From: Arenicellales bacterium
GTDB taxonomy: Bacteria > Pseudomonadota > Gammaproteobacteria > Arenicellales > JAJDZL01
DNA: 64,000 nt
Assembly: GCA_965200545.1 (NCBI GenBank)
Contig: CBDAUJ010000003.1
Coordinates: forward strand, 398,504-462,503
Reading direction: 5' to 3'
Shown here: piece after piece, positions 29,044 through 54,568 of the stretch
Numbering within the stretch: the first letter of the stretch is position 1
How the letters are laid out: each line of letters starts with the position of its first letter
Notes under the pieces: model-generated
The model's input: the letters and a program-made list of their open reading frames with translations, nothing else
What the model was told of the DNA's origin: nothing
The model's database searches: none
Program-made: the position numbers and the translations under genes

Positions 29044-29045
29044 GC

Positions 29046-30758: not shown

Positions 30759-30760
30759 AA

Positions 30761-31456: not shown

Positions 31457-31505
31457 TGCAGATTCCTCGGTTTATCTAGATCCATTCGATGTGCGATCAC
31501 TCGCT

Positions 31506-32192
31506 TCAATTTGCAAACAGCCGTGATTCCTGCGCCTCGTGGCGCATCATGGCAATTTCGATCTGCGGAGTGAATGTGCCGATCCGATCGACACAGACCG
31601 CTTCTTCGCTCAGCAGTTTCTCAATAATGCGACGCTGCTCACCGATGATTCTCTGTGCATCAATATGGCCAATGATACCCAGACGCAGCGCCGCACTGGT
31701 CAGCTGCGTGCGCAGCTGATGGGCCGCCATCAATTCTGCCTGGCTTCGCTGCATTCCAAGAGCCCGCCAGACTGTGCCTTGGGCAACAGCGTTGTGGCCA
31801 TGCGCCTCGCCCGCCAGCACCCGCTTGCGGAACTGCTTTGCCGCAATACTGCCTAGTCGGGCATGCAAAGTCAGCAATGCCGCGCCGGCCCGCTTGGAGC
31901 ATTCACGGGACTCGAGGCTGAGCGAGCGGGCTTCGACTATCGCGTCCAAAGCACACACCTTGCCGCCGCCAAACTCCGTACGCCAGCAGGCAGCAATGAC
32001 TGGCCGATCTGTATAGTTCCAGCGCCATTGCAGCTGACTGGCAACAAAATCACAAACCTGATCAGCGGTTGTGACTGCACCGTCCGCTGCCAGTGTCTCA
32101 AGCCCCCAAGAAAATGACTGGGTACCGCCCGGGAAAAAACTGTCGCCATGCTGCAGAGCGAGCAGGAGATCAGAATTCAGCGAGCCCGTCAT
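31506..32192 (-). CDS. ureF: Urease accessory protein UreF
   Basis: UreF-like helical protein, 228 aa, between ureE and ureAB. 4-nt overlap with ureE. Confidence 0.85.
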   Translation of the reverse strand: MTGSLNSDLLLALQHGDSFFPGGTQSFSWGLETLAADGAVTTADQVCDFVASQLQWRWNYTDRPVIAACWRTEFGGGKVCALDAIVEARSLSLESRECSKRAGAALLTLHARLGSIAAKQFRKRVLAGEAHGHNAVAQGTVWRALGMQRSQAELMAAHQLRTQLTSAALRLGIIGHIDAQRIIGEQRRIIEKLLSEEAVCVDRIGTFTPQIEIAMMRHEAQESRLFAN

Positions 32193-32638
32193 GCAACTTC
32201 GAACACTCGCTCGTCATCAAGAAACGGCTGCAAGCGCTCAATATAGCCCTGCCGAGGTCCCTCTTGCGCAATCAGCAGACAGTCATCTTCGAAACGCACG
32301 CGCCAGTGCAGATTGCCGGCAAAGTATCCAAGCTCAAGCGCAGCGGCGGCGTTTTCCGCCCGACAGCGTATCCAGATTTCTTCTTGCATCCGCACCACGA
32401 TGGCACGCTGCGGCTCAAGATCAAGGATCGCTCCGTTGACCAAATGCTGACTGCGAGGCAATGCGATCTGGCAGACCGTTCCGCAGTCAGTTGTGGCGCG
32501 CAAGCGATGGCGCTTCAAGTCCTCACGCTCCAGCACCAAGTATTCCACTTTGCCATCGTGCATATAATGGTGAATCTGATTGCGCAAATCCGGATCATCA
32601 ACAAACCCGAGTATGCCGGTAACGGTCAGACTGCTCAT
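32189..32638 (-). CDS. ureE: Urease accessory metallochaperone UreE (no His-rich tail)
   Basis: UreE-like size and the LGYFAGNLHW segment (counterpart of the GNRH motif). First gene of the ure cluster. Confidence 0.75.
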   Translation of the reverse strand: MSSLTVTGILGFVDDPDLRNQIHHYMHDGKVEYLVLEREDLKRHRLRATTDCGTVCQIALPRSQHLVNGAILDLEPQRAIVVRMQEEIWIRCRAENAAAALELGYFAGNLHWRVRFEDDCLLIAQEGPRQGYIERLQPFLDDERVFEVA

Positions 32639-32870
32639 TGCGCTTCAGAGACTTTGGAAGCGGCTTGCCCTGCACTGCCGGCCGCGGCGGTCGCAAGCCG
32701 AATCGATTCAGCGAAACTGTTTGCTCGACTCATCTGATGATCTGCGATCACTGGCCAGCTAGCTCCTGCTAGTCATAGCCGGCATTGAATGGACTCTCAA
32801 GGCATACCGCATCAAGCAAAACATTTTCCCTGCGGCATCGATTCTCTCCGCCGGCACTCTGGATTGGCGC

Positions 32871-33965
32871 TCAGCCGCCCAACGCTTCTTTGACCAGCTG
32901 GCAATCAGTCCCTCTATCGAATTCCGTCCGAGCGCTGATGTAGCCGAATTTTATCCACCAGTCGTTCGTCATTTCCCAATGATCTCTGAGCTGGCCATTG
33001 GTTTGCTCAAACGGAGGCGCGCCTTCCAGCACCCCGCAAAACCGGGCAGTGTCCTCGAGACTGTAGATGTACAACTCGCCTTTCGCGGGATCGTTTTTCG
33101 ATACATCCGTTGTATGCGATCCATCGCCCAGAATCGCCGCAACATCTTCCACTGAGAACCCGACCGCCTCTGCAATCACCTTGTTGGACTCTTCCGCATT
33201 GGCACGCCAATGCTCAACGCCTGCGTAGATGGCTTGCAAGGCTCTGACAGCCAAATCGCGGCGATTCTCAAGAAAGTCATTCGACATATACATCGCATCA
33301 GACAGCAGCGCGGACTGAAGCCAGAAACTATTGAGGGAATGAGCGGCCAGCGTAGATCCCTCCAAGCCGTCCAGAACCTGTGTATTGAACGGAGACCACA
33401 GTGAAGCCGCGGCGACCTGGCCGCTGATCATCGCAGCCGCTGCATCCGCTGCTATGAGATTCACCATCTGCACGTCACCCACATCAATTCCATTTTGCTC
33501 CAGCAAGATACCCACCATAATGTGGGACAAGCCGCCTTCCAGCACCGCGATCTGCTTGCCTTTGAGCTCACTGATATCCTTAATGTCCGGGTGCAGAATA
33601 ATCATATCCGCTCCATGTGACAGATTAGACAGGTTGATCAGCTTGAAACCCATATCCTCAGCCGTAGCAATCGGACCAAACTCAATGGTGCTGAAGACAA
33701 TGTCAAGCTGATTGGTCGACAGCAGGCTGAACAGCTGAATCGGATCTTCAATGACGGTATTCTCGAATTTCAAATCCGTCAGCTCAAAGGCTTCCGCCAC
33801 ATACTGAAAGCCGTAGCCGGGCCAGCTGAAATGCCCGATCCGGACCGTATCCTGAGCAATGGCGCTGCCGGCGCCGAACCAAGACAGCGCGGCCAGCGAC
33901 AGTGCCGCCAGCGACATTTTCCCCCACCGGACGCATCGTTTCAGTTCTTGAATCTGCTTGTTCAT
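32871..33965 (-). CDS. NitT/TauT-family (NMT1/THI5-like) ABC transporter substrate-binding protein
   Basis: Signal peptide (AALSLAALSWFGAGSAIA). Periplasmic SBP following a cognate ATPase and permease. Confidence 0.8.
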   Translation of the reverse strand: MNKQIQELKRCVRWGKMSLAALSLAALSWFGAGSAIAQDTVRIGHFSWPGYGFQYVAEAFELTDLKFENTVIEDPIQLFSLLSTNQLDIVFSTIEFGPIATAEDMGFKLINLSNLSHGADMIILHPDIKDISELKGKQIAVLEGGLSHIMVGILLEQNGIDVGDVQMVNLIAADAAAAMISGQVAAASLWSPFNTQVLDGLEGSTLAAHSLNSFWLQSALLSDAMYMSNDFLENRRDLAVRALQAIYAGVEHWRANAEESNKVIAEAVGFSVEDVAAILGDGSHTTDVSKNDPAKGELYIYSLEDTARFCGVLEGAPPFEQTNGQLRDHWEMTNDWWIKFGYISARTEFDRGTDCQLVKEALGG

Positions 33966-34013
33966 AATCTAAGCCTCCTTAAAAATTTTAGGTCTTTTGA
34001 CAATCCGTGACAT

Positions 34014-34862
34014 CTAGCTGATCTTGCCCTTGATCTCCTCGCGCATCATCCGATACAGCAGTTTTTCCATTTCCAGATAACCTGGATCCGCCAGCAGTTC
34101 TTCCTTTTTCAAATAGCGCTTGCCGCCTTTGAAATCCATCGCCAAATCGGCCTTGATCTTGCCGGGCTGACGAGTAAAAAACAGGATGCGGTCAGCCAAG
34201 TATATTGCTTCTTGGATATCATGTGTGACCATGATAATGGTCTTGCTTTCCCGCTCGATAATCTCGATAATCATCTCTTCCATTTCCCAAGTAACCTGCG
34301 CATCCAGCGCGCCAAAAGGCTCATCAAGCAAGAGCAGCTGGGGGTCTTGGGCAAGCGCCCGGGCAATAGCAACGCGCTGTTTCATGCCGCCGGACAGCTG
34401 CACTGGATAGGCGTCAGCAAAATCTTCAAGATGAACCAGTCGCAGGAACTGATCAACCCGCGCAATCCGCTCTGCCTTGGGCAGTTTCTCAATCTCCATG
34501 CCAAACTCGACATTTTTTCGAACCTTCAGCCAAGGAAAGGATGTGTATGCCTGAAATACCATGCCGCGCTCCGGACCGGGTCCTAAAATCGGCTGGCCAT
34601 ACACTTGAATGCTTCCGCGCGTGGGAAATTCAAGGCCGGCAATCAGCCGCAGCAGTGTTGTCTTTCCGCATCCAGAGGGTCCAATGAATGCAGTAACCTG
34701 ATTTTCTTGAATATTGACAGAAACATCATCCAAGGCTACGATCTTTCCGCCGACATATTCTTTCGAAGTTCGGACGGCGCTGACAGCTGGCTCGCCGGCT
34801 TCTCGACCGGCCTCCAGCGCCTTGTTTCGCTCCGTCCACTTTGAGTCTGAAGTCTTTGGCAT
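34014..34862 (-). CDS. NitT/TauT-family ABC transporter ATP-binding protein
   Basis: GPSGCGKTTLLRLIAGLE, LSGGMKQRVAIARAL, LLLDEPFGALD. Confidence 0.9.
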   Translation of the reverse strand: MPKTSDSKWTERNKALEAGREAGEPAVSAVRTSKEYVGGKIVALDDVSVNIQENQVTAFIGPSGCGKTTLLRLIAGLEFPTRGSIQVYGQPILGPGPERGMVFQAYTSFPWLKVRKNVEFGMEIEKLPKAERIARVDQFLRLVHLEDFADAYPVQLSGGMKQRVAIARALAQDPQLLLLDEPFGALDAQVTWEMEEMIIEIIERESKTIIMVTHDIQEAIYLADRILFFTRQPGKIKADLAMDFKGGKRYLKKEELLADPGYLEMEKLLYRMMREEIKGKIS

Positions 34863-34867
34863 TCGGG

Positions 34868-35752
34868 TTACCGCCTGGCGTGCTCATGGGGAAAGAGAAT
34901 TCGCGAGGCAAAGCGAAACGAAATGTCAGTGAGCACGCCCAGCACACCGATCGTCAAAATGCCGCCCATGATCAAATCGACATGCAAAAAGCGAGAAGCT
35001 CGCATCATCACTGCCCCGATGCCGTCGGTCGCTGCCACAATCTCTGCAATGACCAGGTAGGTCCAGGAAACCGCAATCATATTGCGCATTGAGTCGACAA
35101 TCTGGGGGGCGGCGGCTGGCAGCGCGACACGCAGGACAATTTGCCGCCGATTGGCGCCCATGGTTTGAGCCGACTCAATCAGCTCTTTCGGCACTGACAA
35201 GACATTATCCAGAATCAGTGCGATCAGGAAAAATACACACCCTAAAAACAGCAGTGCCAGTTTCGCGAAATCGGTGGGGCCAAAATAAACCAGCAGGAGC
35301 GGTACGAAAGATGCCGCTGGCAGATAGCGCAGGCCTCCCACCGTCGGATTGATCAGCGCGCGCAGCCTAATAAAACAACCCATCAGGAGGCCGAGCGGCA
35401 CCGCCAGTGCGCAGGCGGCAAAAAAACTTGCATAAATACGGTAGACACTTTTGCCAACATCCCCGATATAGCCTTTATCGCGAATCACCTCAACAATGCT
35501 GCCGACCACCTCACCAACGCCAGGCAGAAATTTCTGCTGCGACTCTGGGGTCAAGTAGTGGGCAATTTGCCAGATGGCAAAAAAGCAAATCACCCCCGCA
35601 ACACCCAGCACAAGCGAAGTGTTGCGGTTCAAAGTTCCCCCTATCTCCAGAAAGCGAGACTTTGGCGGCTGATAAAGCGGTGCCTCGCCAGTTGCGCTTT
35701 CGGAGTCGTTCAGAGGTCTATCTTTTTCGATTTTTTTGGGCATCATCCGCAC
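34868..35752 (-). CDS. NitT/TauT-family ABC transporter permease
   Basis: Polytopic protein with EAA-type loop ESAQTMGANRRQIVLRVALPAAAPQI. Confidence 0.85.
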   Translation of the reverse strand: MRMMPKKIEKDRPLNDSESATGEAPLYQPPKSRFLEIGGTLNRNTSLVLGVAGVICFFAIWQIAHYLTPESQQKFLPGVGEVVGSIVEVIRDKGYIGDVGKSVYRIYASFFAACALAVPLGLLMGCFIRLRALINPTVGGLRYLPAASFVPLLLVYFGPTDFAKLALLFLGCVFFLIALILDNVLSVPKELIESAQTMGANRRQIVLRVALPAAAPQIVDSMRNMIAVSWTYLVIAEIVAATDGIGAVMMRASRFLHVDLIMGGILTIGVLGVLTDISFRFASRILFPHEHARR

Positions 35753-35905: not shown

Positions 35906-37380
35906 CTGTACTTTGATAGGAAAGCCTTGTACAATATGGCTTTTTCAAACCTCTGTCTTTCACCCGACGGGTGAAAGACAGAACTTGCCATAGGAGTACA
36001 AGGCCGATGAGGATTTTATCATACAAGCTGGGCGTCACGCGCAATGCGACCACCTCGCGCGCCGGGCTGCTGGCGCTCGCCGAGCTGCTGCGCAAGGTCG
36101 GGCTGGCGGAACTGGCGCGCACACACCTGCTGGCCGAGATCAGCCGCCGCCTGCTGGCGCTGGCGCTGCGCGGGCGCACCGAGGTCACCTTGGACATTGA
36201 CGCGACGGCGATCGAGGCTGACAAGAAGGAGGCCAAGTGGACGTACAAGAAGCACAAGGGATACATGCCGATGGTCGGGCATGTCGCCGAGACCGGGCAG
36301 GTGGCGGCGATTGACTTCCGCGACGGCAATGCGCCGCCGAGCAAGGACAATCTGGGGTTCATCCGCCAGTGCGAGGCGGCGCTGCCGGCCGGGGTGTCGG
36401 TGCGCCGGGTGCGCATCGACGCGGCGGGGTACAGCGCCGACGTGGTCAATTATCTGATGCAGAGCGGACAGGGCTTTGCGATCCGCGCGAAGATGGACGC
36501 CAGCGTCAAGGAGTCAATGAGCGCGATCCGGGACGGGCAGTGGGAGGCGCTGGTGCATGCGGACGGGACGCGGTCGAAGACGCAGGAGGCGGCGCGCACG
36601 CTGCATGCGATGGCTGACACTGGGGCGTTCACGCTGGCGGAGCGGCGAAAGCGCATTGCTGCGGGCGAGAACGCGCACATTGACGCGTTTGTGGATGCGG
36701 GCGGCAATGCGGCGTCGCGCGGGGCGTATCTGTACCGGGCGATTGCGACGAATCTTGATGGCAAGACGGATCATGAGATTGTGCAGTGGCACAGCCTGTG
36801 CGGGGAAACTTCGGAAAATAAAATAAAGCAGCTGCGCAGCGACTTTGCCGGTGCCAGGCTGCCGTGCGGGAAGTTCGGGGCCAATGCGGTGTGGCTGATG
36901 GTCAATGCGCTGGCGTACAATGTGCTGTGCCTGCTGCGGATGATGCTGCCGGCGAGGTGGCTGACCGCGCGGGCGCCGGCGCTGCGGTTTCATCTGTATG
37001 GCGCCGGCGGGCATGTGGTGCGCCACGGCCGGCAGCTGACGGTCAAGGTGCAGGCGCATCGGCACCGGGTGATCGGCGCGGCGCTGCGCTCGATAAGGGA
37101 GTTTGCGCTGCCCGCCTGACGGCGGCCGCCCGGCGGGCGGCAAAGGGCTTGGGATCGACCGATTGCCGCCGGGCAAGGCGGGCGTGCGCCTGCCGGGGGC
37201 GAGAGGCGGCGCAGTCGCGCCGCGCCGGTCGGTTTTGTGGAAAATGCGGCGCTGAAAGCGCGGCCGGACCGGAATCCGGTGCGGCCGGGCAGGTCGAATC
37301 GACGAATTCGGCGGCCCGTCTTCGCCCTCAGCATTGAACGTGCCGATTTGGGACACCAAACATCAAAGTTTCGAGTACAG
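35906..37380 (+). mobile_element. IS1380-family insertion sequence (boundaries tentative)
   Basis: Abrupt switch to very GC-rich DNA at about 36.0-37.3 kb. Contains an IS1380-type transposase. Possible imperfect ends: CTGTACTTTGAT (35906-35917) versus the reverse complement of 37362-37380 (CTGTACTCGAAACTTTGAT). No clear target duplication. Confidence 0.5.
36007..37119 (+). CDS. IS1380-family DDE transposase (N-terminal region shorter than usual)
   Basis: VTLDIDATAIEADKKEAKWTYKKHKGYMP, RIDAAGYS and GETSENKIKQLRSDF match the D-D-E blocks of IS1380/ISEcp1-type transposases. AGGAG precedes ATG 36007. Confidence 0.8.
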   Translation: MRILSYKLGVTRNATTSRAGLLALAELLRKVGLAELARTHLLAEISRRLLALALRGRTEVTLDIDATAIEADKKEAKWTYKKHKGYMPMVGHVAETGQVAAIDFRDGNAPPSKDNLGFIRQCEAALPAGVSVRRVRIDAAGYSADVVNYLMQSGQGFAIRAKMDASVKESMSAIRDGQWEALVHADGTRSKTQEAARTLHAMADTGAFTLAERRKRIAAGENAHIDAFVDAGGNAASRGAYLYRAIATNLDGKTDHEIVQWHSLCGETSENKIKQLRSDFAGARLPCGKFGANAVWLMVNALAYNVLCLLRMMLPARWLTARAPALRFHLYGAGGHVVRHGRQLTVKVQAHRHRVIGAALRSIREFALPA

Positions 37381-37592
37381 GAAAAACCTATAATCGCCAG
37401 ACAGCTCCGATTCTCGGGACTCTGCGAGAAGCGGCAGTCAAATGGCGGATCTTAAGATGCTTGAGCGGGCGATACTTTCTTGATGCGCCATTTGCAGTCT
37501 GAAACGCACTGTCGCCGCCTGGCAGCAGTGGATTGAAGAGGGAGCAATGCGCATCCTATCATGAAACAGTCACATCCTTATGAGGTAAACGC

Positions 37593-38660
37593 ATGAATGC
37601 CAGCCTACCCTCTGCTTGGGAGTTCGTTCCGCATCATCACCAAGGTCCGGCAGCGCAAAGCGGCAAGAATGATCATATCTACTCTCCGCGCAATCACAAC
37701 GGCGTGTTCAAGTCGCGCGGCCTGTCCACATTCATGGGGGCGCCCTATTGTCCGCCGCACCGGAGCGCAATTCGTGAGATGGGCGCCAAAGTTTGTTTTC
37801 TCGGGGTTCCGTGGGACCAGGGGCAAATGGTTCGAGCCGGAACCTCGCAGGGGCCCTCTGGAATTCGTGAGGCGTCCACTCAATACTCGCCCTACATGTT
37901 TGAGTTCGATGTCGACCTGATGACTTTCTTCCGGCCGGTTGACTGCGGTGACGTGCCCATTGTCCCCGGCAACAACGAGCGCAGTCACGAATACATTTAT
38001 CAGTACATTACTGAGTGTCTTGAAGGCGACGCAAAAGTCATTCTTTGCGGCGGCGATCACTCGGTGCCTATTCCCGGCTCGCGGGCGCTGTCGGATTTTC
38101 ATAAAAACGGCAAGATCGGCTATCTGCATGTCGACTGCCATCTGGACTCTGCGCCTGATTGGGAAGGCTCGCCCTACACGAATTGCTCGGGTCCGGCAAG
38201 AGCTTTTGATCTGCCAAACTGCGCTGGCGAAAATATGGCGCACATGTGCTCGCGCAATGGACTCAACCCGAAGGACTGGGTCGACTTCTGGAGCGATAAC
38301 GGGGTCCGCATGATCCCCATGCAGGAGGTTGTCGACCGCGGCATCGAGGCCTGCACCAAAGAAATCTTTGAAATTGCCTGGAATGGAACCGATGGCGTCT
38401 ACTGGTCTTGGGATACCGATTCGCTGGATGCGAGCTGCATGCCAGGCACAACAGCGCCCGAGACGTTTGGTTTGAAACCGCGCGAGGCGATCCGGCATGC
38501 ACGAATCGCGGGAACGTACGGCGCTGATGTATTTGAGGTATCTGAGCTGACTCCGCATTTTGATGTCAGTGACATGAGTATCAAGCTCGCCTGCTGCCTG
38601 ATCTATCAGTACCTTGGCAGTCGTGCAAAAACACTTCGCGACCGAGGACAAGCCGCTTGA
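37593..38660 (+). CDS. Arginase-fold ureohydrolase, subunit type A (copy 1), full metal-ligand set
   Basis: GGDHSVPIPG, GYLHVDCHLD (DxHxD), SWDTDSLD (DxD). GAGG Shine-Dalgarno. Confidence 0.85.
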   Translation: MNASLPSAWEFVPHHHQGPAAQSGKNDHIYSPRNHNGVFKSRGLSTFMGAPYCPPHRSAIREMGAKVCFLGVPWDQGQMVRAGTSQGPSGIREASTQYSPYMFEFDVDLMTFFRPVDCGDVPIVPGNNERSHEYIYQYITECLEGDAKVILCGGDHSVPIPGSRALSDFHKNGKIGYLHVDCHLDSAPDWEGSPYTNCSGPARAFDLPNCAGENMAHMCSRNGLNPKDWVDFWSDNGVRMIPMQEVVDRGIEACTKEIFEIAWNGTDGVYWSWDTDSLDASCMPGTTAPETFGLKPREAIRHARIAGTYGADVFEVSELTPHFDVSDMSIKLACCLIYQYLGSRAKTLRDRGQAA

Positions 38661-38711
38661 TCAGAAGTCGCTTGACAGCGCAAAAACAATCAGATTTTGT
38701 GAGAGAGAAAA

Positions 38712-39746
38712 ATGAATCCTGTGAAGAACTTTGAGCATTTGTTCTCGCCGCTGGGCGATCCCGAGAATTTCAAGTCACTGGGTGTCGTGACTTTCATGCG
38801 CTCTGCGCAAGTTGATATGGAAAGCGATGCGCTGCGCCAAAGCGGCGCGCGGTTTGCTTTTGTCGGCATTCCCTATGATGAGGGCAACGTTGGCAAACCG
38901 GGGTCTGAAGATGGCCCGCAGGCATTTCGGGTTGCGAGTCATGAATACTTCCCCTACTGGTTTGAGTATCGCGTTGACCTGGCAGGCACATGCGTGGACT
39001 GCGGCAATGTGCGCGTGCCCAAGGTGATGCCGGAATTGGCGCATGATCGCATCTATCGGGCAATTCGTGAAGTGCTTGCTGCGGGCGTTACACCGGTGAT
39101 CTGCGGCGGCGACCGCTCCATTTCAATCTCGGCCTCGAAAGCTTTGTCTGACCACATCGGTCACCAGAAAAAGATTGGCTACATGCACTTCGGCGCCCAT
39201 CTGCAGATGGCAGACACCTGGGCCGGCGAGAAAATGGCCAGCACTTGCACATTGGCTCGTGTGAGCGAGCTCAAGAACATTCATGCGGACAATATCGCCC
39301 ATATCGGCGCCCGCAATTCAATGAATCCGCGCGACCACATTGAGCTGGCAGAGGTACGCGGGATTCGTTTTCACGCCATGGATGAAGTCGTGGAGCGAGG
39401 CGTATCGACGGTCGTCAACGAGGCGGCAGATCGTGTATGGAACGACACTGACGCGCAATACTTGAGTTTCGACATGAACATCATGGACGCCTCAGCCGCA
39501 CCAGGTGTAACTGCGCCCGAGCCCGGCGGTTTCGAATCCCGTGAGATGATGCAGACCGCCACATTGCTCGGCGAGCGCGGTTCAGTGAGCTTGATCGAAG
39601 TGTCTGAGCTGGCGCCGGTTTTTGACGTGAGCGGCACGACCTCAAAATTAGCTGCCTGCGTTGTCCTGCGTCTCATGGCGGCCATGGCGCGGCAGCGCGG
39701 TGAGTCTGTAGATCCCAATCTTCGGCGGGAAAGCCTGAGAAAATAG
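38712..39746 (+). CDS. Arginase-fold ureohydrolase-like protein, subunit type B (copy 1), degenerate metal ligands
   Basis: Family fold retained (DEGNVGKPGSEDGP, AAPGVTAPEPGG), but GGDRS (His to Arg), FGAHLQ (Asp to Gly, Asp to Gln) and SFDMN (second Asp to Asn). Confidence 0.8.
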   Translation: MNPVKNFEHLFSPLGDPENFKSLGVVTFMRSAQVDMESDALRQSGARFAFVGIPYDEGNVGKPGSEDGPQAFRVASHEYFPYWFEYRVDLAGTCVDCGNVRVPKVMPELAHDRIYRAIREVLAAGVTPVICGGDRSISISASKALSDHIGHQKKIGYMHFGAHLQMADTWAGEKMASTCTLARVSELKNIHADNIAHIGARNSMNPRDHIELAEVRGIRFHAMDEVVERGVSTVVNEAADRVWNDTDAQYLSFDMNIMDASAAPGVTAPEPGGFESREMMQTATLLGERGSVSLIEVSELAPVFDVSGTTSKLAACVVLRLMAAMARQRGESVDPNLRRESLRK

Positions 39747-40693
39747 ATTGCTCGCTCTTCTGTGCGGGAGCGGAGCGCCCGCAAGGCATTTTCATTTGAA
39801 CAGCGCACTGGCATCCCTGTGACCTGTATCGAACGCAAATCTCCCAGTGAGCTTAACCTAGGTCACCAGCTGCGGAGCATCCGCAATCGTTCCACACCTG
39901 CCGAATGCGCTCATTGCATTGACGAATCGCTGCGAATCTCACTTTCGCCTTGTCGCCAGCTGTTGCCCAAACCACGGCACTTTTGCAGCGAATGGGCAGC
40001 CGGCCGCACTGGCCGCCATATCGACAACCGCTGAAAATGTGAACTCCAAGCTGCCGACTGCAAGCTGCTCAAAGCTGGCCAAATATCCAAGCTTCAAACA
40101 CACGACAGGACACCGAGAATGGAAGCGGCGTAATGATTGCGAGTCGGCGGACTCAAACTAAGAGCAAGCGCACCAGGCACACTCAGTACATGGCCCGCAA
40201 TTGTTCGTAATATTTCGGACATCATTCAAACCTTGATTGCCTGTCGATCTGTCTGGCATGACTCGCCAGACTGCCACTCATGGCATCAACCTGCAACTGA
40301 ATCGCCGGCAACCTGCGCAACGTTCGACCGCACTGGCAGCGGCAGATTAATACAGCGACTTGCACTCCACTCCACACATTGATCTGCTCCAAGCCGCCTG
40401 CGCGACCTGTATACCTTCTATGCCGAGACGCACAAGAACGATACCGCCTTGCATTGATCCGTTGAGCGGATACGACGAGCGCTGCGTCTTAAAACGCGGC
40501 GACTGACTCTCAGGCCGAGTCAATCATCTTTTTTGCTGCGGCCCGCGGAGGCTCCGAGAAATTCACCGGCAGGTTGCGATGATTTTTTACAGCCTCATTG
40601 CGGAATCAGATCATCACTTAAATCATATCCAGACCCGCATAAATGTTAGAATTGACGCAGAATCAAAACAATCATCACGAAAGGAGCAAGACG

Positions 40694-41542
40694 ATGTGTA
40701 ACGTATGCGGCTGTGGATCCGAACAAACGCATAACCACGAGCATAGCGAACATAAGAAGCATGACGATAATGCCAAACAGCGTCTTCATTTCGGAGGTAA
40801 CGAGGCGAGAGTGTCTGTTGCCGGATTCAACAGTTCCGAGCTGGTCACCATTGAGAGAAATATTCTTGATAAAAATCAATCTTATGCAAACCAAAATCGA
40901 TCTTTTTTCTTGGACAACAAACTGTTCGCAGTCAATCTGCTGTCCAGTCCGGGCGCCGGCAAGACCAGTCTGCTGATCAAAACCATTGAGAATCTGCAGC
41001 AGGCGATCCCAATTTATGTGATTGAAGGCGATCAGGAGACCGACAACGACGCTGAACGCATTCGCCGCACCGGTGTTGAGGCTGCGCAAATCAATACTGG
41101 AAAAGGCTGTCATCTTGATGCCCATATGGTCGGTCACGCCCTTGAGGAGTTCACGTTTGACCCAGCCGGAGGCTTGGTGCTCATCGAAAACGTCGGAAAT
41201 CTGGTGTGTCCCGCTGCATTCGACTTGGGCGAGTCCTGCAAAGTCGTGATCTTGTCGGTCACAGAAGGCGAGGATAAGCCGCTGAAATATCCCGATATGT
41301 TCGCTGCCTCGGACCTGATGATCATCAGCAAATCCGATTTGCTGCCATATTTGCGGTTTGATGTCGAACAGGCAATCGAATACGCCAAGCGCGTCAACCC
41401 GGCTTTGGAAGTCATACAACTGTCTGTCGAGTCCGGCGACGGACTTCAGCAATGGGAAAAGTGGCTGCTGAGCGATGCCAATGCTCAAGCGCCACGCTCA
41501 CCGCAAAGGCAGTCTGTAGGAAGCTGCTGTGCCCATGCATGA
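40694..41542 (+). CDS. hypB: HypB-like nickel-binding GTPase metallochaperone
   Basis: N-terminal MCNVCGCG plus His-rich stretch, P-loop SPGAGKTSLL, ENVGNLVCPA, SKSDL. AAGGAG precedes ATG 40694. Confidence 0.9.
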   Translation: MCNVCGCGSEQTHNHEHSEHKKHDDNAKQRLHFGGNEARVSVAGFNSSELVTIERNILDKNQSYANQNRSFFLDNKLFAVNLLSSPGAGKTSLLIKTIENLQQAIPIYVIEGDQETDNDAERIRRTGVEAAQINTGKGCHLDAHMVGHALEEFTFDPAGGLVLIENVGNLVCPAAFDLGESCKVVILSVTEGEDKPLKYPDMFAASDLMIISKSDLLPYLRFDVEQAIEYAKRVNPALEVIQLSVESGDGLQQWEKWLLSDANAQAPRSPQRQSVGSCCAHA

Positions 41543-41930
41543 GCTGGCGCTGTCCCGAAGTCTAGTCGAAATGGTGGACGACTACGCACTGCGTCACCGT
41601 GCAAGCCGAGTCAAGCAGATCAATCTTCGCCTGGGCGAGTTGTCCGCGATGACGAGAGCCCTGTATTTCTGCTTTGAATCCGTCTCCAAAGGCACCGTAT
41701 GCGAAGGCGCGACTCTTTCTATAGAGACTGTGCCCTTGACTGTCTACTGCAGTCACTGCGACGAGACCAAGAAGCCTTCGGGTCGCTACAGTTTTCGCTG
41801 CAGCGACTGCGGCATGCCCACACCCAAAGTCATCACTGGGCGCGAACTGCAGCTGGTCTCGATCGAACTGGCATCATCAGATCAGACATCAGTTGCGCTC
41901 GACACCCGCGAAACCGCCGCAACCGCATAA
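41535..41930 (+). CDS. hypA: HypA-like nickel metallochaperone
   Basis: Starts MHELAL (the MHE Ni-binding N-terminus). Zn motifs CSHC...CSDC. The ATG overlaps the hypB stop (ATGCATGA). Confidence 0.88.
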   Translation: MHELALSRSLVEMVDDYALRHRASRVKQINLRLGELSAMTRALYFCFESVSKGTVCEGATLSIETVPLTVYCSHCDETKKPSGRYSFRCSDCGMPTPKVITGRELQLVSIELASSDQTSVALDTRETAATA

Positions 41931-41958
41931 ATCGAATGGACAATCAAGTAAAAAGAAT

Positions 41959-43038
41959 ATGACAATCAGCCCAAACAATGCGTGGAGTTTCGTCGCGCAT
42001 CAGCATCAGGGGCCGCATCAGGAAACCGATACCGATGCCCATACGCGGTCTCCAAGCAAACACAACAGCAGCTTCAAGGCGGAAGGCATTCTCACTTTCA
42101 TGGGTGCGCCTTACTGTCCACCTGAACGCGACAAAGTGCGAGCCGCGGGCGCTAAAATCTGTTTTCTTGGGGCTCCTTGGGACCAAGGTACCATCGTACG
42201 CACGGGCACCTCCAGCGGACCGCACGGCATTCGCGAGGCATCATCGCAGTATTTTTCTTATATGTTTGAATATGATGTCGATTTGATGACCTTTTTTCGA
42301 GTGGTCGACTGCGGCGACATCCCGATTGTTCCGGGGAACAACACACTCTCACAGCAATACATGTGCGATTATGTCACCGAATGTCTCGAAGGCGGCGCGA
42401 AAGTGATTCTCGTCGGCGGCGACCATTCGGTCCCCATCCCCGGTGCGCGAGCCCTGTCGCAGTATCTCAGCCGCCACAACCCTGAGGGAAAAATGGGCTA
42501 TCTGCATGTGGACTGCCATTTGGATGCTGCGGTCGATTGGGCAGGCATTGAGATTACCAATGCCTCGGGGCCCACTGAAACCTTCAAGCTGCCAAACGTC
42601 AACGCCGAAAACATGGCCCACATGGGCTCACGAAACGGCTTGAACCCGAAAGACTGGATGGATTTTTGGGTCGACAACGATATGCCCATTTACTCAATGG
42701 CACAGGTTGTCGAGCGCGGCGTTGAAGTGTGCGGACGTGAAATTCTTGAGCGTGCCTGGAATGGCACCGATGCAGTTTATCTTTCTTGGGACACCGACTC
42801 GATCGACTGTAGCTGCATGCCTGGAACCAGCTGTCCTGAAAGCTATGGCCTCAATGCGCGCGAGGCGCTCGCCTTTGCGCGACTGGCCGGGCAGTTCGGT
42901 GTCGATGTGCTTGAGCTGGCAGAGCTCTCGCCCGTTTTCGATGTCAGTCAGATGAGCGCAAAACTCGCTTGCAACCTGATTTATCACTATCTCGGCAGCC
43001 GCGCCAAGACTTTGCGTGACAGCAGCCAAAGTCCTTGA
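41959..43038 (+). CDS. Arginase-fold ureohydrolase, subunit type A (copy 2), full metal-ligand set
   Basis: Co-linear with A1. GGDHSVPIPG, GYLHVDCHLD, SWDTDSID. Trimmed to MTISPNNAWSF by analogy with A1 (MNASLPSAWEF). Confidence 0.85.
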   Translation: MTISPNNAWSFVAHQHQGPHQETDTDAHTRSPSKHNSSFKAEGILTFMGAPYCPPERDKVRAAGAKICFLGAPWDQGTIVRTGTSSGPHGIREASSQYFSYMFEYDVDLMTFFRVVDCGDIPIVPGNNTLSQQYMCDYVTECLEGGAKVILVGGDHSVPIPGARALSQYLSRHNPEGKMGYLHVDCHLDAAVDWAGIEITNASGPTETFKLPNVNAENMAHMGSRNGLNPKDWMDFWVDNDMPIYSMAQVVERGVEVCGREILERAWNGTDAVYLSWDTDSIDCSCMPGTSCPESYGLNAREALAFARLAGQFGVDVLELAELSPVFDVSQMSAKLACNLIYHYLGSRAKTLRDSSQSP

Positions 43039-43093
43039 TGCCACAGGCCACAAACAGAAATCTGCTGAAGCACAAACCCATCATGGTATCCCT

Positions 43094-44137
43094 ATGAATC
43101 CTGCAAAAGCCTACTTGCATCTGTTTTCTCCGCTTGGCGGCGAAAACGCCGATAACTACCGTACGCCAGGCCAAATTTCATTTTTGCGCTCGAAGTTCAT
43201 GTCTTTGGATGACGCAGCCTTGGCGGAAACCGATGCGCCTTATGTGTTCATCGGCGTGCCGTTCGATGAAGGCAATGTGGGCAAACCCGGCAGCGAGGAC
43301 GGACCGCGCGAGTTTCGGGTTGCATCGCTGGATTATTTTCCGTTCTGGTTCGAGTTCAATGTCGATCTGCACGGCAGTGCCATCGACTGCGGCGATGTCT
43401 CGATGCCGAGAGTCAGTCCTGACGTTGCCCGCGAGCGCATCTACCGAGCGGTCAGCAAAGCGCTGGCCGCCGGCAAGACACCGATCATTTGCGGCGGCGA
43501 CCGATCGGTCTCGATACCCGCAGCCAAAGCTCTCTCAGATCATCTCGGTGCAGACCAGAAAATGGGCTATCTGCATCTGGGCGCCCATCTGGACATGGCA
43601 GACAGCTGGGCCGGCGAGCGCGAAGTCAGCACCTGTACCCTGGCGCGCATCACCGAGCTGAACAATCTCAGTATGGAGCACGTCGCGCATATCGGCGCCC
43701 GCAATTCATTCAATCCCAAAGACCATGTCGATCTCGCAAAATCCCGCAACATGCGTTTCTACCCCATGCATGAAGCCCTTGAGCGTGGCATCGATACCGT
43801 CATTGACGAAGCGGTCAGCCGCGTTTGGAACGGTACCGATGGCCAGTATCTGAGTTTCAACTTCAATGTTCTGGACTCTTCAGCCGCACCCGGCGTCACC
43901 GCCACTGAGCCTGGCGGATTGGAATCGCGCGAAATTATGCGTGTTGCCTCAAGTATCGCCAAACAGCAAGGTGTCAGCGTGATCGACGTGACCGAACTGT
44001 GCCCGATGTTTGATGTCAGCGGCTCCACTTCACGCACCGCCGTTTGTGTCGTGCTTCGAATCATGGCAGAGATTGCTCACCTGCGCGGGCAGACGCTGGA
44101 TGAATCGATTCGCCGCCCCGGCTGGCAATACAACTAA
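43094..44137 (+). CDS. Arginase-fold ureohydrolase-like protein, subunit type B (copy 2), degenerate metal ligands
   Basis: Co-linear with B1. GGDRS, LGAHLD (first Asp to Gly), SFNFN (both Asp to Asn). Trimmed to MNPAKAYLHLF by analogy with B1 (MNPVKNFEHLF). Confidence 0.8.
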   Translation: MNPAKAYLHLFSPLGGENADNYRTPGQISFLRSKFMSLDDAALAETDAPYVFIGVPFDEGNVGKPGSEDGPREFRVASLDYFPFWFEFNVDLHGSAIDCGDVSMPRVSPDVARERIYRAVSKALAAGKTPIICGGDRSVSIPAAKALSDHLGADQKMGYLHLGAHLDMADSWAGEREVSTCTLARITELNNLSMEHVAHIGARNSFNPKDHVDLAKSRNMRFYPMHEALERGIDTVIDEAVSRVWNGTDGQYLSFNFNVLDSSAAPGVTATEPGGLESREIMRVASSIAKQQGVSVIDVTELCPMFDVSGSTSRTAVCVVLRIMAEIAHLRGQTLDESIRRPGWQYN

Positions 44138-44175
44138 ATCTCATCATGCAAATTGACCTGTAGGAGGTAAGCAGA

Positions 44176-45255
44176 ATGAAATCAAGAAAGTCACATTCAT
44201 TGCGGACGCTGATGCAATGCGCTGCGACAGCGGTTGCTGTCGCACTTGGGGCCATGGTGACACAGGTATCGGCAGCTGATGCGCTCAATGTCCTGGTCTG
44301 GTGCGATCATGCCGATGAGAAACTGATCAAGCCGTTTGAAGACAAGCATAACGTAAAAGTCAATGTCAAAACCTATGAGGGCACTGGCACTGCACTGTCC
44401 ATCATTGAGCAGTCCGCTCCCGGCGACTGGGACGTGCTCGTGGTCGACGCGCCGGATGCACCGGTGGTCGCTGGCCTCGGACTACTTGCGCCGCTGAATG
44501 ATGCCGACCTGCCGCTTGATAATCTGTTCGATCCGCTGACCGCAGCCGGTTTCAATTATGTCGACGGGAATCGATACACAGTGCCGGAGAAATTCGGCTA
44601 CTACGGGGTGGTCTATAACAAAGACAAGGTTGATCCGGAAGACATGAAGTCCGCGCAAGTCATGTGGAATGACAAGTATGCGGGACGCATCGCAGTCTAC
44701 GATTACTACTTTCCGGCCATGCAGCTGATTGCCATCTCCATGGGCATCGCACCGGATGATATTACCATGGAGCACTTGCCTCAGATTCGTGAGAAACTGC
44801 TCGAAATGCGCTCGAATGTCAAAATGATCGGTGATATTGTGAGTGTGCAGAACGCGCTGGTCAATGGCGATGTGGACATTATCGTGAATGCTGCTGAATT
44901 TGCGGTCTCCAACCTCATGCCCTCGCTTCCGCATCTGGATTGGACTATTTTTGAGGAAGGCGGCCTGATCTGGATTCAAGGCCTGAGTATCATGAAAGAC
45001 TCAAAGCAAAAGGATTTAGCTCTGGAGTTCGTCAAGCATGTAATCAGCCCCGAGGGACAAAGCGCACTGGCAACTTCGGAATGCTACTGGGCGATGCCTG
45101 CCAATGCGACAACCGAACTGTCGGCAGACGAGAGAGCGATCCTGCGCTGGGATGAGCAATCCGGGTTCTTGGCGCGTTCAGTGCCATCGGCGATCAGTCA
45201 GCCGGATATCGATGCAGAAATGCTGGATATGTGGACTGAATTTTTGCAAAAATGA
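44176..45255 (+). CDS. PotD/PotF-like (family 1) ABC transporter substrate-binding protein
   Basis: AGGAGG Shine-Dalgarno, signal peptide ending VSAADA, polyamine-type SBP length and composition. Confidence 0.8.
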   Translation: MKSRKSHSLRTLMQCAATAVAVALGAMVTQVSAADALNVLVWCDHADEKLIKPFEDKHNVKVNVKTYEGTGTALSIIEQSAPGDWDVLVVDAPDAPVVAGLGLLAPLNDADLPLDNLFDPLTAAGFNYVDGNRYTVPEKFGYYGVVYNKDKVDPEDMKSAQVMWNDKYAGRIAVYDYYFPAMQLIAISMGIAPDDITMEHLPQIREKLLEMRSNVKMIGDIVSVQNALVNGDVDIIVNAAEFAVSNLMPSLPHLDWTIFEEGGLIWIQGLSIMKDSKQKDLALEFVKHVISPEGQSALATSECYWAMPANATTELSADERAILRWDEQSGFLARSVPSAISQPDIDAEMLDMWTEFLQK

Positions 45256-45386
45256 TTGAAATCAAGCGAATACTCAGGCATTCGCTACAGTGATGCCGGA
45301 CTTGATGGGGAGCTGACTTCACGTCCGGCATTACGTTATTCTGACCATAGCGTTGAGGTAATTGCATGCGATAATTCGGCACAGAC

Positions 45387-46247
45387 ATGGCGACGGCACA
45401 ACAAAAATCCCTTTTTGATTTAACGAAGTGGGCAATTCACCCGGCCTTTTGGTTCACGGTGATTTTTTTCGCTATACCGCTTGCAATCATGCTTGCCGTC
45501 AGTTTCTGGCAGCGCGTATACGGAAAACTAGCAGCGACTTGGGACTTGGCCAATTACGCAAAGTTTTTTGGCCGAGATTACCTCCTTGAATCACTGTTCA
45601 ATTCGATTGAAGTGACGGTTTTGTCGACTCTCATCAGTATTGTTCTTGCCTACCCTCTGGCCTACGCACTGGCCTATAAAGTTCCGCCACGCCTGCAGCG
45701 CCTGATACTGCTGCTGGCAGTGATGCCTTTTTGGACTGCATACGTGGTGCGCTCCTACAGCTGGCTGCTGGTGATTGCTGAAAATGGTGTCATCAACGTG
45801 ATTCTGACTGGTTTGGGGCTCGTTGAGCAACCGCTTGAAATGGCGTATAGCCGCGGTGCAACGGTGCTCGGGTTTGTTCACTTTTTCACCATGCTACTGA
45901 CCTTGACCATCTATGCGAATCTGGTTCAAATCAAGCCTTCCTACCGGAAAGCCGCCACCGACCTCGGCGCGAATTCGCTGCAGGCGTTTTTGCGCATCAC
46001 CTTGCCGCTCAGCATGCCCGGTGTAGCGGTGGGCGGCTTTATTTCGTTTGTAATTGCGATCGGCGATTACATTACTCCGCAGATTTTGGGCGGCGGCACG
46101 GAAGTTCTGGTGCCGCAGGCGATCATATTGCAAGTATCGCGCGCTGCCAACTTTCCGATGGCTTCAGTGATGAGCGTAACGCTGATGATTGTCGTGATTG
46201 TCGTCTACCTCATTTCAGCCAAGCACATGAAAATGGAGCGGGTGTAA
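45387..46247 (+). CDS. PotB-like ABC transporter permease
   Basis: Six-TM binding-protein-dependent permease with EAA-like loop (YRKAATDLGANSLQAFLRITLP). Confidence 0.85.
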   Translation: MATAQQKSLFDLTKWAIHPAFWFTVIFFAIPLAIMLAVSFWQRVYGKLAATWDLANYAKFFGRDYLLESLFNSIEVTVLSTLISIVLAYPLAYALAYKVPPRLQRLILLLAVMPFWTAYVVRSYSWLLVIAENGVINVILTGLGLVEQPLEMAYSRGATVLGFVHFFTMLLTLTIYANLVQIKPSYRKAATDLGANSLQAFLRITLPLSMPGVAVGGFISFVIAIGDYITPQILGGGTEVLVPQAIILQVSRAANFPMASVMSVTLMIVVIVVYLISAKHMKMERV

Positions 46248-47038
46248 TGCGACAGTGGCTGCGCAACATGCCGTTTTTCGGCTACATCGCGCTGGCTCTG
46301 GGGTTTATCTATCTCCCGGTTGTGGTACTGGTGATTTTTTCGTTTCAAGACGGACTGCTGCCCGTGCCGCCGTTCCATGGGCCCAGTCTGCAATGGTATG
46401 ACAAGATGCTCGAAAATGATCGTCTGGTCGACGCTTTGCTCAACTCCGTAGCTGTGGCTGTGCTATCGTCGGCAGCCACCACAGTGCTGGGATTTTTGGC
46501 CGCTTACGGAATGGTCAAGCGGCCGCCGCGCTGGATCGGCAGCATTCGGTTCGTATTGATGGCGCCGCTGACGGTGTCCTACCTGATTATTGGCATTGGC
46601 CTGCTGATCACATTGAACATCTTGGGAATACCAAAATCGCTGTTCGCTGTTGGCATCGGACACGCTGTGATCAATCTGCCGCTTTGCTTCGCAATCATTT
46701 ATTCTCAGTTCGGCGATCATATGAAGAACATTGATGCGGCGGCACGGGATCTCGGCGCAAGCGATTTTCAAACCATGATTCGAGTCATCGCGCCGATCAT
46801 GAAACCGTCTTTATTCGCTGCGTTTTGCCTTTCCGCAACACTGTCGTGGGATGAGTTTATCATTGCGTTTCTGCTGAGCCGTTTTGAAGTCACGCTGCCC
46901 GTAATAATTTTCGAGATGCTGCGGGCCGGATTGACGCCGGAGGTGAATGCGGCCGGCACTGTTGTATTCGCAATATCGTTCACGTTTGTGGCAATCGCAG
47001 CAAGCGTTATGTTTCTTAGCAACCGGAAAACACCATGA
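46247..47038 (+). CDS. PotC-like ABC transporter permease
   Basis: Start overlaps the previous stop. EAA-like loop (IDAAARDLGASDFQTMIRVIAP). Confidence 0.85.
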   Translation: MRQWLRNMPFFGYIALALGFIYLPVVVLVIFSFQDGLLPVPPFHGPSLQWYDKMLENDRLVDALLNSVAVAVLSSAATTVLGFLAAYGMVKRPPRWIGSIRFVLMAPLTVSYLIIGIGLLITLNILGIPKSLFAVGIGHAVINLPLCFAIIYSQFGDHMKNIDAAARDLGASDFQTMIRVIAPIMKPSLFAAFCLSATLSWDEFIIAFLLSRFEVTLPVIIFEMLRAGLTPEVNAAGTVVFAISFTFVAIAASVMFLSNRKTP

Positions 47039-48117
47039 GCCATGAACCGCTGGTGGTTTTAGATGGCGTGACCAAAACATTTGGTGAAGTCATCGCTGTT
47101 GATCGCGTGAGTCTGAATATTGAGCCGGGTGAATTTCTGGTTCTGCTCGGGCCATCAGGGAGCGGCAAGACAACCTTGCTTTCGATGCTCGGCGGATTCA
47201 TCACACCAACGGCCGGCAAGGTGCTGATCCGCGGCGAGGACGTTACGCACCTGCCCCCCGCGACGCGACCGACCGTCACAGTGTTTCAAGACTATGCGCT
47301 TTTCCCTCATATGAGCGTAAGTGACAACATCGGATTTGGCCTGGTGATGAGAAAAGTGCCGAAACGCGAGCGCCTGCGGCGCATATCGGCGGCACTCGAA
47401 AAAGTCGGCCTGACCGGCTTTGGCGCGCGCGGCGTTCACCAGCTCTCCGGCGGCCAGCGCCAGCGGGTTGCATTGGCGCGCGCAATCGCCGTGGAGCCGA
47501 CAGTCCTGCTGCTGGATGAGCCCCTCGGAGCACTGGATTTGAAAATTCGCCAGAAAATGCAAGCAGAGCTGGTGCATCTGCAAAAGAACCTCCATTCAAC
47601 ATTTGTCCATGTAACGCATGACCAGGATGAGGCCATGAGTATTGCAGATCATATTGCGCTGGTCAACCGTGGAAAAATTGAAGACTACGGTTCCCCAGAG
47701 CGAATCTACCTGCGTCCGGCCACTTTGTTCACGGCAAGATTCATGGGTGAAACGAATATCATTGAGGTGCAGCCGACGGCGGCCAGTGACGGCGAGAAGC
47801 TGATCGTTGACAGTCCGCTCGGCGAATTGACGCTGCCGCTTGCGAACTTGGACAGCAGCATACCCCACAATATTGCACTGCGGCCGGAGCAAATCAAATT
47901 AAGCGACGGAAACATCGCAGCCGGTCATCTGGCGCTGGGAGATGCCAAAGTGACTGAGGTCGTATTTCAAGGCACCCATCGGCTCTGTCGCGCGATAGGC
48001 GGCACGGCAATGGATACCGAACTGCTGATCAAGGTTGCGCCGGATCATCAGGTTGTGGCGGGCGATATGCTTGCTTTACAAGCGCGCAGAACCGATGTGA
48101 CGCTATTGTCGAAGTAA
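47035..48117 (+). CDS. PotA-like ABC transporter ATP-binding protein
   Basis: GPSGSGKTTLLSMLGG, LSGGQRQRVALARA, LLLDEPLGALD, plus a C-terminal TOBE-like region. Confidence 0.9.
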   Translation: MSHEPLVVLDGVTKTFGEVIAVDRVSLNIEPGEFLVLLGPSGSGKTTLLSMLGGFITPTAGKVLIRGEDVTHLPPATRPTVTVFQDYALFPHMSVSDNIGFGLVMRKVPKRERLRRISAALEKVGLTGFGARGVHQLSGGQRQRVALARAIAVEPTVLLLDEPLGALDLKIRQKMQAELVHLQKNLHSTFVHVTHDQDEAMSIADHIALVNRGKIEDYGSPERIYLRPATLFTARFMGETNIIEVQPTAASDGEKLIVDSPLGELTLPLANLDSSIPHNIALRPEQIKLSDGNIAAGHLALGDAKVTEVVFQGTHRLCRAIGGTAMDTELLIKVAPDHQVVAGDMLALQARRTDVTLLSK

Positions 48118-48296: not shown

Positions 48297-49190
48297 ATGC
48301 ATGACAGGCCAGTGCTCATGCCCAGCATTGTTGTCTCTGCCGGTGCGGCAATATGGGGTCTTTTCTGGATACCCGTCCGTCAGCTGGACAGCAACGGAAT
48401 TTCGGCCGCATGGACATCACTGATTGCGCTGGGATTGATTGGCATTGTGTTCGTGGTGCTGTTTGCGACTCGATATCTCAAAACGCGTCGAATTCCTTGG
48501 AATGTACTGCTGACCGGGTTAATTGGCGGCGGGTACTTCGTGCTGTATACCTGCGCGCTGATACTCACAGAAGTCGTCAAGGCGATCTTGCTGATTTACC
48601 TGGCTCCAATCTGGAGCATTATGCTCGGCAGATTTATGCTCAACGAGAAAATAACGACGTATCGCGTGATCGCAGTCTGCTGCGGCATTTCTGGCCTGGT
48701 CGTCGTGCTGGGCATTTCAGACGGCAATTTGCGATGGACCGAAGTCGGCGACTTGATGGCGCTTGTCGCCGGGTTTCTCTGGTCCTTCGCGGCAGTTCGA
48801 ATCAGGCAGCGTCCAGAAATTCCAGTGTGGGAGCAGGTCGGCGCCTTTCACATCGGCGGCGCGCTGATCGCAGCACTGTTCATTATCATGCCATTTCAAG
48901 GGCTGCAAAAAACACCCGCTTTGAACGCATTGGTCGATTCCGTCTTGTGGCTAGCAGTTTTTATGTTCTTTTTTGTCATAGCAGTTTATCTCGTTTGGTG
49001 GGGTACGCGAATTCTAAGTCCCACACGAGTCGGTTTGCTCTCGATGACAGAAGTGGCATTCGGAGTCGGTTCGGCTGCGATTTTAGCTGGAGAGCCGTTC
49101 GGCTGGGTGCAAGTTACTGGCGTAATTCTGATTCTGTCGGCGGCATTTATTGATGTGCTTGATCGATTTCCAAATTCAAGCTCCGCCTGA
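48297..49190 (+). CDS. EamA/DMT-superfamily transporter
   Basis: About 10 predicted TM helices in two similar halves, 297 aa. Confidence 0.75.
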   Translation: MHDRPVLMPSIVVSAGAAIWGLFWIPVRQLDSNGISAAWTSLIALGLIGIVFVVLFATRYLKTRRIPWNVLLTGLIGGGYFVLYTCALILTEVVKAILLIYLAPIWSIMLGRFMLNEKITTYRVIAVCCGISGLVVVLGISDGNLRWTEVGDLMALVAGFLWSFAAVRIRQRPEIPVWEQVGAFHIGGALIAALFIIMPFQGLQKTPALNALVDSVLWLAVFMFFFVIAVYLVWWGTRILSPTRVGLLSMTEVAFGVGSAAILAGEPFGWVQVTGVILILSAAFIDVLDRFPNSSSA

Positions 49191-49489
49191 TCGATGCGCA
49201 TCCCCAATTCGAAATTTGATCTCGCATGGCGGCCAATTCAGCCATTTTCATCCGTTCGTACTCAACTTGATGCCGCAGTCACTGCATACACTGGCAGCAA
49301 ACTCTTTTCCGCCCAGTTTAACGAAACAACAATAACGCACAAACATGAGGATACAAATCACACTGCATCCATTTTGGTTGAAGACGAGACAACCAGAAAA
49401 CTTTATTTTCGTCATGCATGTGATCAGTGGTGCAGTCCGGAATCACATCGCAAAATGCCGCGCGCAACTGCCAGCCTGATCGAATCCTT

Positions 49490-54551: not shown

Positions 54552-54568
54552 TTTCAGTTTTCAGACCC

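Follow-up and report, generated by a model that had tools for sequence, protein, structure and literature searches.

A 64,000-nucleotide stretch of an Arenicellales bacterium genome (contig CBDAUJ010000003.1, positions 398,504 to 462,503; hereafter the window) carries two pairs of arginase-fold genes, A1B1 and A2B2, whose B members very probably encode metal-free, non-catalytic β subunits (pseudoenzymes) of two separate heteromeric, nickel-dependent ureohydrolases of the MfmAB/DmgH family. Six genes, A1, B1, hypB, hypA, A2 and B2, lie in one direction at window positions 37593-44137, with a single hypBA pair between the two A/B pairs. A1 (37593-38660, + strand; 355 residues; Pfam Arginase, E=3e-52) and A2 (41959-43038, +; 359 residues; Pfam Arginase, E=8e-52) encode catalytic α-type subunits, and each is followed, after spacers of 51 and 55 nucleotides from stop to start, by a gene for a degenerate β-type subunit, B1 (38712-39746, +; 344 residues; Pfam PF00491, E=1e-59) and B2 (43094-44137, +; 347 residues; Pfam PF00491, E=5e-59), respectively. 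The nickel-chaperone GTPase gene hypB (40694-41542, +, alternative start 40643; Pfam cobW; NCBIfam TIGR00073 at 285 bits against a cut-off of 121) overlaps the nickel metallochaperone gene hypA (41535-41930, +; Pfam HypA, E=1.4e-28; TIGR00100 at 94.7 bits against a cut-off of 88.1) by 8 nucleotides. The mechanical list of open reading frames (ORFs) had started A2 at a TTG (41893) and B2 at a GTG (43016); we adopted the downstream ATG starts because the resulting N-termini (MTISPNNAW and MNPAKAY) agree with those of homologues.

The closest described system is the metformin hydrolase MfmAB/MefH/MetCaCb, which three 2024 papers (PMC10927577, PMC11271267, PMC11399263) report to be a nickel-dependent heteromer, resolved as α2β4. 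The di-nickel centre of this enzyme resides in α only; β has lost metal ligands and is metal-free by crystallography and inductively coupled plasma mass spectrometry. According to the same papers, neither subunit is active alone, α is poorly soluble or insoluble without β, the α active site is capped by residues 1-23 of MetCb, without which no soluble complex is obtained, HypA and HypB are required in vivo, and heterohexamers still form in pairs only 61.7% identical to MetCa. Li et al. (2024, among these papers) described MetCb as a “pseudoenzyme ... metal-free binding partner” belonging to a clade that has replaced three to five of the six ligands.

We aligned the four A and B proteins with MfmA and MfmB, whose sequences came from the PDB matches, and with the agmatinase SpeB of E. 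coli MG1655, and obtained an alignment free of gaps around all three ligand motifs. The six metal-ligand columns (MfmA H159, D184, H186, D188, D277 and D279, corresponding to SpeB H126, D149, H151, D153, D230 and D232) are all kept in A1 (H156, D181, H183, D185, D274, D276) and in A2 (H156, D185, H187, D189, D278, D280). The same columns read R135, G161, H163, Q165, D254 and N256 in B1 (codons at 39114-39116, 39192-39194, 39198-39200, 39204-39206, 39471-39473 and 39477-39479, +) and R137, G163, H165, D167, N256 and N258 in B2 (codons at 43502-43504, 43580-43582, 43586-43588, 43592-43594, 43859-43861 and 43865-43867, +), with every codon checked. Each B subunit thus keeps two of the six ligands and has four replaced (Arg, Gly, Gln and Asn in B1; Arg, Gly, Asn and Asn in B2), which places both within the range of three to five substitutions given by Li et al.; the columns of MfmB itself read R, G, Q, D, N, N. 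A first-pass annotation made from the window's sequence alone had claimed that A1 and A2 hold all ligands and that B1 and B2 have lost most of them, that the His-to-Arg and Asp-to-Gly changes are common to both B copies, and that the DxD pair has become Asn partly in B1 and fully in B2. The alignment bears out each of these claims as well as the underlying column assignment, and the motif strings on which they were based (GGDRS; FGAHLQ and LGAHLD; SFDMN and SFNFN) are all literally present in B1 and B2. The substitutions are not assembly errors, since an independent short-read contig (run X1) spanning 37400-44300 (6.9 kb) reproduces the ligand codons, with three base differences and no gaps over its whole length and no difference at any ligand codon.

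One column of B1 deserves separate mention. D254 (39471-39473) is Asn in 77 of 79 B subunits, including the nearest orthologues at loci L002 and L004 (see below), where the pattern is RGHQNN. The Asp, on which the independent contig agrees, looks like a lineage-specific change from Asn (AAC to GAC).

Sequence and structure comparisons place both pairs in the family of the metformin hydrolase. The best PDB match of B1 is MfmB (“metformin hydrolase subunit B”; E=2e-145, 487 bits), with all A-type and single-gene ureohydrolases at 208 bits or less (MfmA 208 bits, GdmH 146 bits), and that of A1 is MfmA/MetCa (E about 1e-167). Global identity to MfmA is 65% for A1 and 63% for A2, and identity to MfmB is 58% for B1 and 62% for B2; within the window, A1 and A2 share 65%, B1 and B2 57%, and A and B proteins 34-40%. 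B1 and B2 fall inside the B clade of neighbour-joining trees. For B1, an AlphaFold2 model drawing on 35 family members (predicted local distance difference test score 80, predicted template modelling score 0.84) retrieved in Foldseek the MfmB chains 8SP2, 8SNK, 8X3G, 8SNF and 8RYI at the top (TM score 0.86-0.90, 57-59% identity), then MfmA chains, and then nickel-dependent guanidine hydrolases. The match of this model to the MfmB chains, whose crystal structures show β with the same fold and no metal, leaves no room for the possibility, raised in the first-pass annotation, that the ligands are conserved but offset. By contrast with these matches, none of the four proteins reaches the NCBIfam cut-off for agmatinase (125-132 bits against 174), hutG or arginase, and no NCBIfam model specific to either subunit was found. 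B1 and B2 were accordingly rejected as canonical agmatinase, arginase or formimidoylglutamase acting as an active homomer, given four missing ligands and sub-cut-off scores.

The B proteins also retain the N-terminal segment that caps the α subunit in MetCaCb. Among 35 diverse B sequences, including B1 and B2, the N-terminus follows the pattern MNPxK..HLFSP with M1, N2, P3, K5, H9, L10, F11, S12 and P13 invariant, which fits the capping role. The aromatic residues Y22 and F82 of MetCb have counterparts in B1 (F20 and a Phe) and in B2 (Y22 and a Phe).

The family is much larger than early counts of a “few dozen” or 56 pairs suggested. Searching proteins with B1 yielded 304 clusters of B type (E<=1e-20), and scanning the GTDB species genomes gave 126 matches, of which 80 loci were kept. 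The B gene lies directly 3' of an A gene at 79 of these 80 loci (the single exception is cut by a contig end), and hypB and hypA usually adjoin the A-B pairs. We took a census of the ligand columns in 79 A-B pairs, made up of 77 genome loci, the metagenome locus L002 and the two pairs of the window. The A subunits read H-D-H-D-D-D in 76 of the 79. In the B subunits, the first Asp of DxHxD is Gly or Ser in 79/79, the last ligand is Asn in 79/79 and the fifth is Asn in 77/79, while the first His column holds Arg in 69/79 and His in 10/79 (His also occurs there in 26 of 120 homologues). The same substitutions are common to Alpha- and Gammaproteobacteria. The degenerate site, being the same across the B family, is therefore conserved rather than drifting.

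Three A subunits come from the alphaproteobacterial loci L024, L028 and L061, in each of which the A gene lies at about 8.8-9.9 kb. They read SWDTNS, with Asn as the last metal ligand in the supposedly catalytic subunit.

Selection on the B genes is as strong as on the A genes. Comparisons of B1 with B2 and of the window genes with their nearest orthologues have saturated synonymous sites (proportion of synonymous differences, pS, 0.69-0.80); against the nearest orthologues (L002, L004), non-synonymous differences amount to 4.5-8.6% at pS 0.71-0.80, and one evaluation of these comparisons gave a proportion of non-synonymous differences (pN) of 0.075-0.086 at pS 0.72-0.80. The ratio of non-synonymous to synonymous substitution rates (dN/dS, ω; pairwise Nei-Gojobori estimates) was for this reason taken from closer locus pairs elsewhere in the family. 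In 38 such pairs (dS 0.05-0.6), the median ω is 0.066 for B and 0.086 for A. Over 3061 pairs, the median dN_B/dN_A is 1.05, and dN_A and dN_B are correlated (r=0.76). This strong purifying selection (ω of about 0.07 for B and 0.09 for A), together with the experiments on MfmB/MefH-β/MetCb, supports the earlier proposal of a selected non-catalytic partner subunit as opposed to recent decay.

A1B1 and A2B2 are not the products of a local duplication. A1/B1 and A2/B2 fall into different deep clades of the neighbour-joining trees, each with many orthologues, and by these trees represent two old operon types. The first-pass annotation had held that ligand loss predates the duplication that gave rise to B1 and B2; the loss is indeed old, but the duplication frame does not apply, as the two B proteins are 57% identical members of two old clades and the loss is older than the A/B family as a whole. 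A1B1-like pairs are linked to an NMT1/SsuA-type ATP-binding cassette (ABC) transporter and urease in the window, and NMT1 and/or UreC occur at most other such loci. A PotD-type ABC transporter comes after A2B2-like pairs at L002 and at 14 genome loci (L050, L067-L069, L071, L073, L074, L076-L081 and L083). One alphaproteobacterial genome holds both operon types at separate loci (L023 and L074), and both types stand in tandem with one hypBA between them in the window and on the metagenome contig L002, whose A proteins are 91% and B proteins 87-88% identical to those of the window. The nearest relatives come from metagenome-assembled genomes (MAGs) labelled Arenicellales, Candidatus Poriferihabitaceae or Acidiferrobacterales.

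The active-site pockets of A1 and A2 differ from those of the characterised enzymes. At positions 81, 185, 201 and 289-291, MfmA has Q, C, C and N-S-A and DmgH (dimethylguanidine hydrolase) has Q, S, C and S-T-S, while A1 and its clade have Q, C, C and T-T-A, and A2 and its clade have T, C, A and T-S-C. We rejected a metformin hydrolase sensu stricto (more than 97% identity to MfmA, C185 and N-S-A) on the identities and pocket signatures of A1 and A2, and metformin is not the substrate, since homologues 62-94% identical to MetCa either fail to cleave it or do so about 20,000-fold worse (PMC10927577, PMC11271267, PMC11399263). Identity with DmgH was likewise rejected on sequence, as the S185 and S-T-S signature is absent from both A proteins. 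The A/B family has at least three operon and active-site types, of which the DmgH/MefH type of Aminobacter is the only one characterised. The linked genes, with urease, two importers and a gene (49427-51904) resembling those of dimethylglycine/sarcosine dehydrogenases, suggest that A1B1 and A2B2 cleave natural guanidino compounds to urea and an amine for nitrogen supply.

Taken with the metformin hydrolase structures, these observations lead us to propose that A1B1 and A2B2 would each assemble as an α2β4 hexamer in which the A subunit holds a di-nickel centre loaded by HypA and HypB. The B subunit, presumably metal-free like its characterised homologues, would keep A soluble, and its invariant N-terminus would cap and shape the entrance to the A active site. 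Imported guanidino compounds would most likely be the molecules cleaved, and the urea released would be used by the adjacent urease. We further suggest, more tentatively and at somewhat less than even chances, that the two co-resident enzymes have their own importers and act on undescribed natural substrates, neither metformin nor dimethylguanidine, with B subunits that, at 57% identity, have diverged enough to discriminate between the A partners such that separate hexamers form.

Several points weigh against assigning B1 and B2 a purely non-catalytic, metal-free role. Metal-free status, stoichiometry and nickel dependence are extrapolated from homologues 57-65% identical to the window proteins. 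Both B proteins keep the central His (H163 and H165) that MfmB has lost, and B1 also keeps D254, such that a weak single-metal site is conceivable on sequence. The B pocket is highly conserved (GGD, S136, D259 and E299), which could mean ligand binding beyond scaffolding, and no transcript evidence was found, the sole RNA-labelled runs with the same organism label holding none of the sequence. The two ligand-type residues left in each (H163 and D254 in B1; H165 and D167 in B2) and the ability of Asn to coordinate metals count in favour of independent activity of B1 and B2, through a non-canonical or mononuclear metal site or without metal. The bridging Asp, however, is Gly or Ser in every B subunit, the closest characterised homologue, MetCb/MfmB, is metal-free and inactive, the B gene has an adjacent A gene at all but the one truncated genome locus, and D254 of B1 is Asn in its nearest orthologues, and we consider independent catalysis highly improbable.

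A regulatory or allosteric role for B in addition to scaffolding, in which the degenerate pocket binds a small molecule (substrate, a product such as urea, or an effector), is unlikely but less so. In its favour, pocket residues exceed the protein average conservation of 0.77, with GGD, S136, N256 and D259 invariant, E299 at 0.95 and the Arg that replaces His at 0.87, and the equivalent of the substrate-binding Glu is kept in 119 of 120 homologues. These residues belong to the core of the arginase fold, however, where structural constraint alone could account for their conservation; three independent structures report no ligand in the pocket of MfmB/MetCb, and exchange of the β subunits of MefH and DmgH has little effect on specificity (PMC10927577, PMC11271267, PMC11399263). 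Ligand loss is also what the early decay of a recently inactivated duplicate drifting towards a pseudogene would produce, but the B ORFs are intact, ω is as low as in the A genes, the same substitutions occur across Alpha- and Gammaproteobacteria, and the A-B identity of only 34-40% makes the A/B split ancient. Selection and distribution data exclude recent decay, to which we assign a negligible probability.

Like MfmB, MefH-β and MetCb (8SNF, 8SP2, 8RYI, 8X3G), B1 and B2 have an arginase fold and a degenerate site (R, G,.,., N, N), are encoded directly 3' of the α gene beside hypB and hypA, and keep the MNPAK..HLFSP cap. They differ from MfmB in having the central His where MfmB has Gln, and B1 in having Q165 and D254, an N-terminal loop two residues shorter and F20 replacing Y22; the pairs differ from MfmAB in the pocket signatures of the A partners and in their host, a marine gammaproteobacterium as opposed to wastewater Aminobacter or Pseudomonas. 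DmgH, found in Aminobacter niigataensis DSM 7050 and Hyphomicrobium and proposed as the precursor of MefH, exemplifies what the family does naturally, outside xenobiotic degradation. By homology, the window pairs would resemble DmgH as heteromeric α/β nickel ureohydrolases that release urea and are encoded with hypAB and urea metabolism genes. Unlike DmgH-α (S185, S-T-S at 289-291), A1 has Cys and T-T-A, and A2 has Cys and T-S-C with T81 and A201; the transporters also differ. The nearest single-gene relatives are GdmH (Sll1077) and the Nitrospira guanidinase (7ESR, 7OI1, 9FEK), which are nickel-dependent, with HypA/HypB-type activation and a long N-terminal extension. Unlike the A/B pairs, these enzymes are homo-oligomers in which every subunit is catalytic, and they are about 27-28% identical to B1 and score about 145-151 bits to B1 and A1. 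The same logic of duplication, residue loss in one paralogue and obligate heteromer formation is seen in the carboxyguanidine deiminase CgdAB and other enzyme-pseudoenzyme pairs (cited in PMC10927577), although CgdAB is unrelated in fold and chemistry.

The pseudoenzyme idea is not new, having been described in 2024 for metformin hydrolase; in the window it takes the form of two uncharacterised pairs side by side. Because the principle of a pseudoenzyme β subunit in a heteromeric nickel ureohydrolase was established then, our finding changes no concept, and its value lies in annotation and ecology. Annotation pipelines call all four genes “agmatinase family protein”, though none reaches any curated family cut-off. 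The A/B family has so far been known mainly for drug degradation, and two types in tandem with one hypBA and urease nearby point to scavenging of nitrogen from natural guanidino compounds as its native role. If the substrates are indeed undescribed and the B subunits discriminate between partners, the locus would be a natural system for studying native chemistry and the specificity of pseudoenzyme-enzyme partnerships.

Genes flanking the two pairs include candidate functional partners. A PotD-type ABC importer lies directly 3' of B2 (44176-48117, +; Pfam SBP_bac_8, BPD_transp_1, ABC_tran and TOBE_2), consisting of a binding protein (44176-45255), two permeases (45387-46247 and 46247-47038) and an ATPase (47035-48117), and is the probable importer of the substrate of the A2B2 module. 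On the opposite strand upstream of A1, the region 27542-35752 (-; assigned by Pfam) contains the urease operon (27542-32192; ureD, G, C, AB and F) and the NMT1/SsuA-type ABC transporter (32871-35752), whose binding protein is encoded at 32871-33965. This block is probably the functional partner of A1B1, providing substrate uptake and urea disposal. It is separated from A1 by an insertion sequence (IS)-type DDE transposase gene (35971-37119, +; Pfam DDE_Tnp_1_4) in a patch of 63% GC compared with about 52% around it. At L004, the NMT1/urease block instead comes after A1B1 on the same strand and aligns to window positions 35685-27799 in reverse; the window therefore carries an inversion of the block, which is probably IS-associated. 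A mobile mfmAB plasmid cassette was rejected as an explanation of the locus, as 37400-44300 had no megablast match among the PLSDB plasmids.

The L004/L005 region (Arenicellales MAG, CBDEVD010000006.1) has an A1B1-type pair with neither hypA nor hypB inside 10 kb; after the pair comes a complete urease operon that includes ureE, F, G and D. This arrangement prompts the question whether the accessory proteins of urease can provide the ureohydrolase with nickel.

The spacer of about 900 nucleotides between B1 and hypB (39747-40642) is without a convincing ORF. Rfam searches returned nothing for this region (37100-40700, E<=1) or for the whole window (gathering threshold), and a guanidine riboswitch is therefore absent from the window. 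Promoter and terminator scans gave uninformative output. A decayed EamA gene in the spacer, considered because L002 has EamA at that position, was rejected, since the spacer shows no similarity to it; the EamA orthologue of the window lies elsewhere (48297-49190, +).

Farther 3' of the PotD-type transporter and the EamA gene, positions 49427-51904 (+) encode an 825-residue protein with DAO, FAO_M, GCV_T and GCV_T_C domains, the architecture of dimethylglycine/sarcosine dehydrogenases, which may act on a methylated amine that the ureohydrolases produce. The remaining 3' part of the window (52000-64000) is low in GC (41-48%, except for 57% at 54-56 kb) and contains some ORFs without a Pfam match. 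It also encodes a GmrSD-type restriction endonuclease (58292-60394, -) and a large DNA methylase (61619-63976, -), and is probably a defence island.

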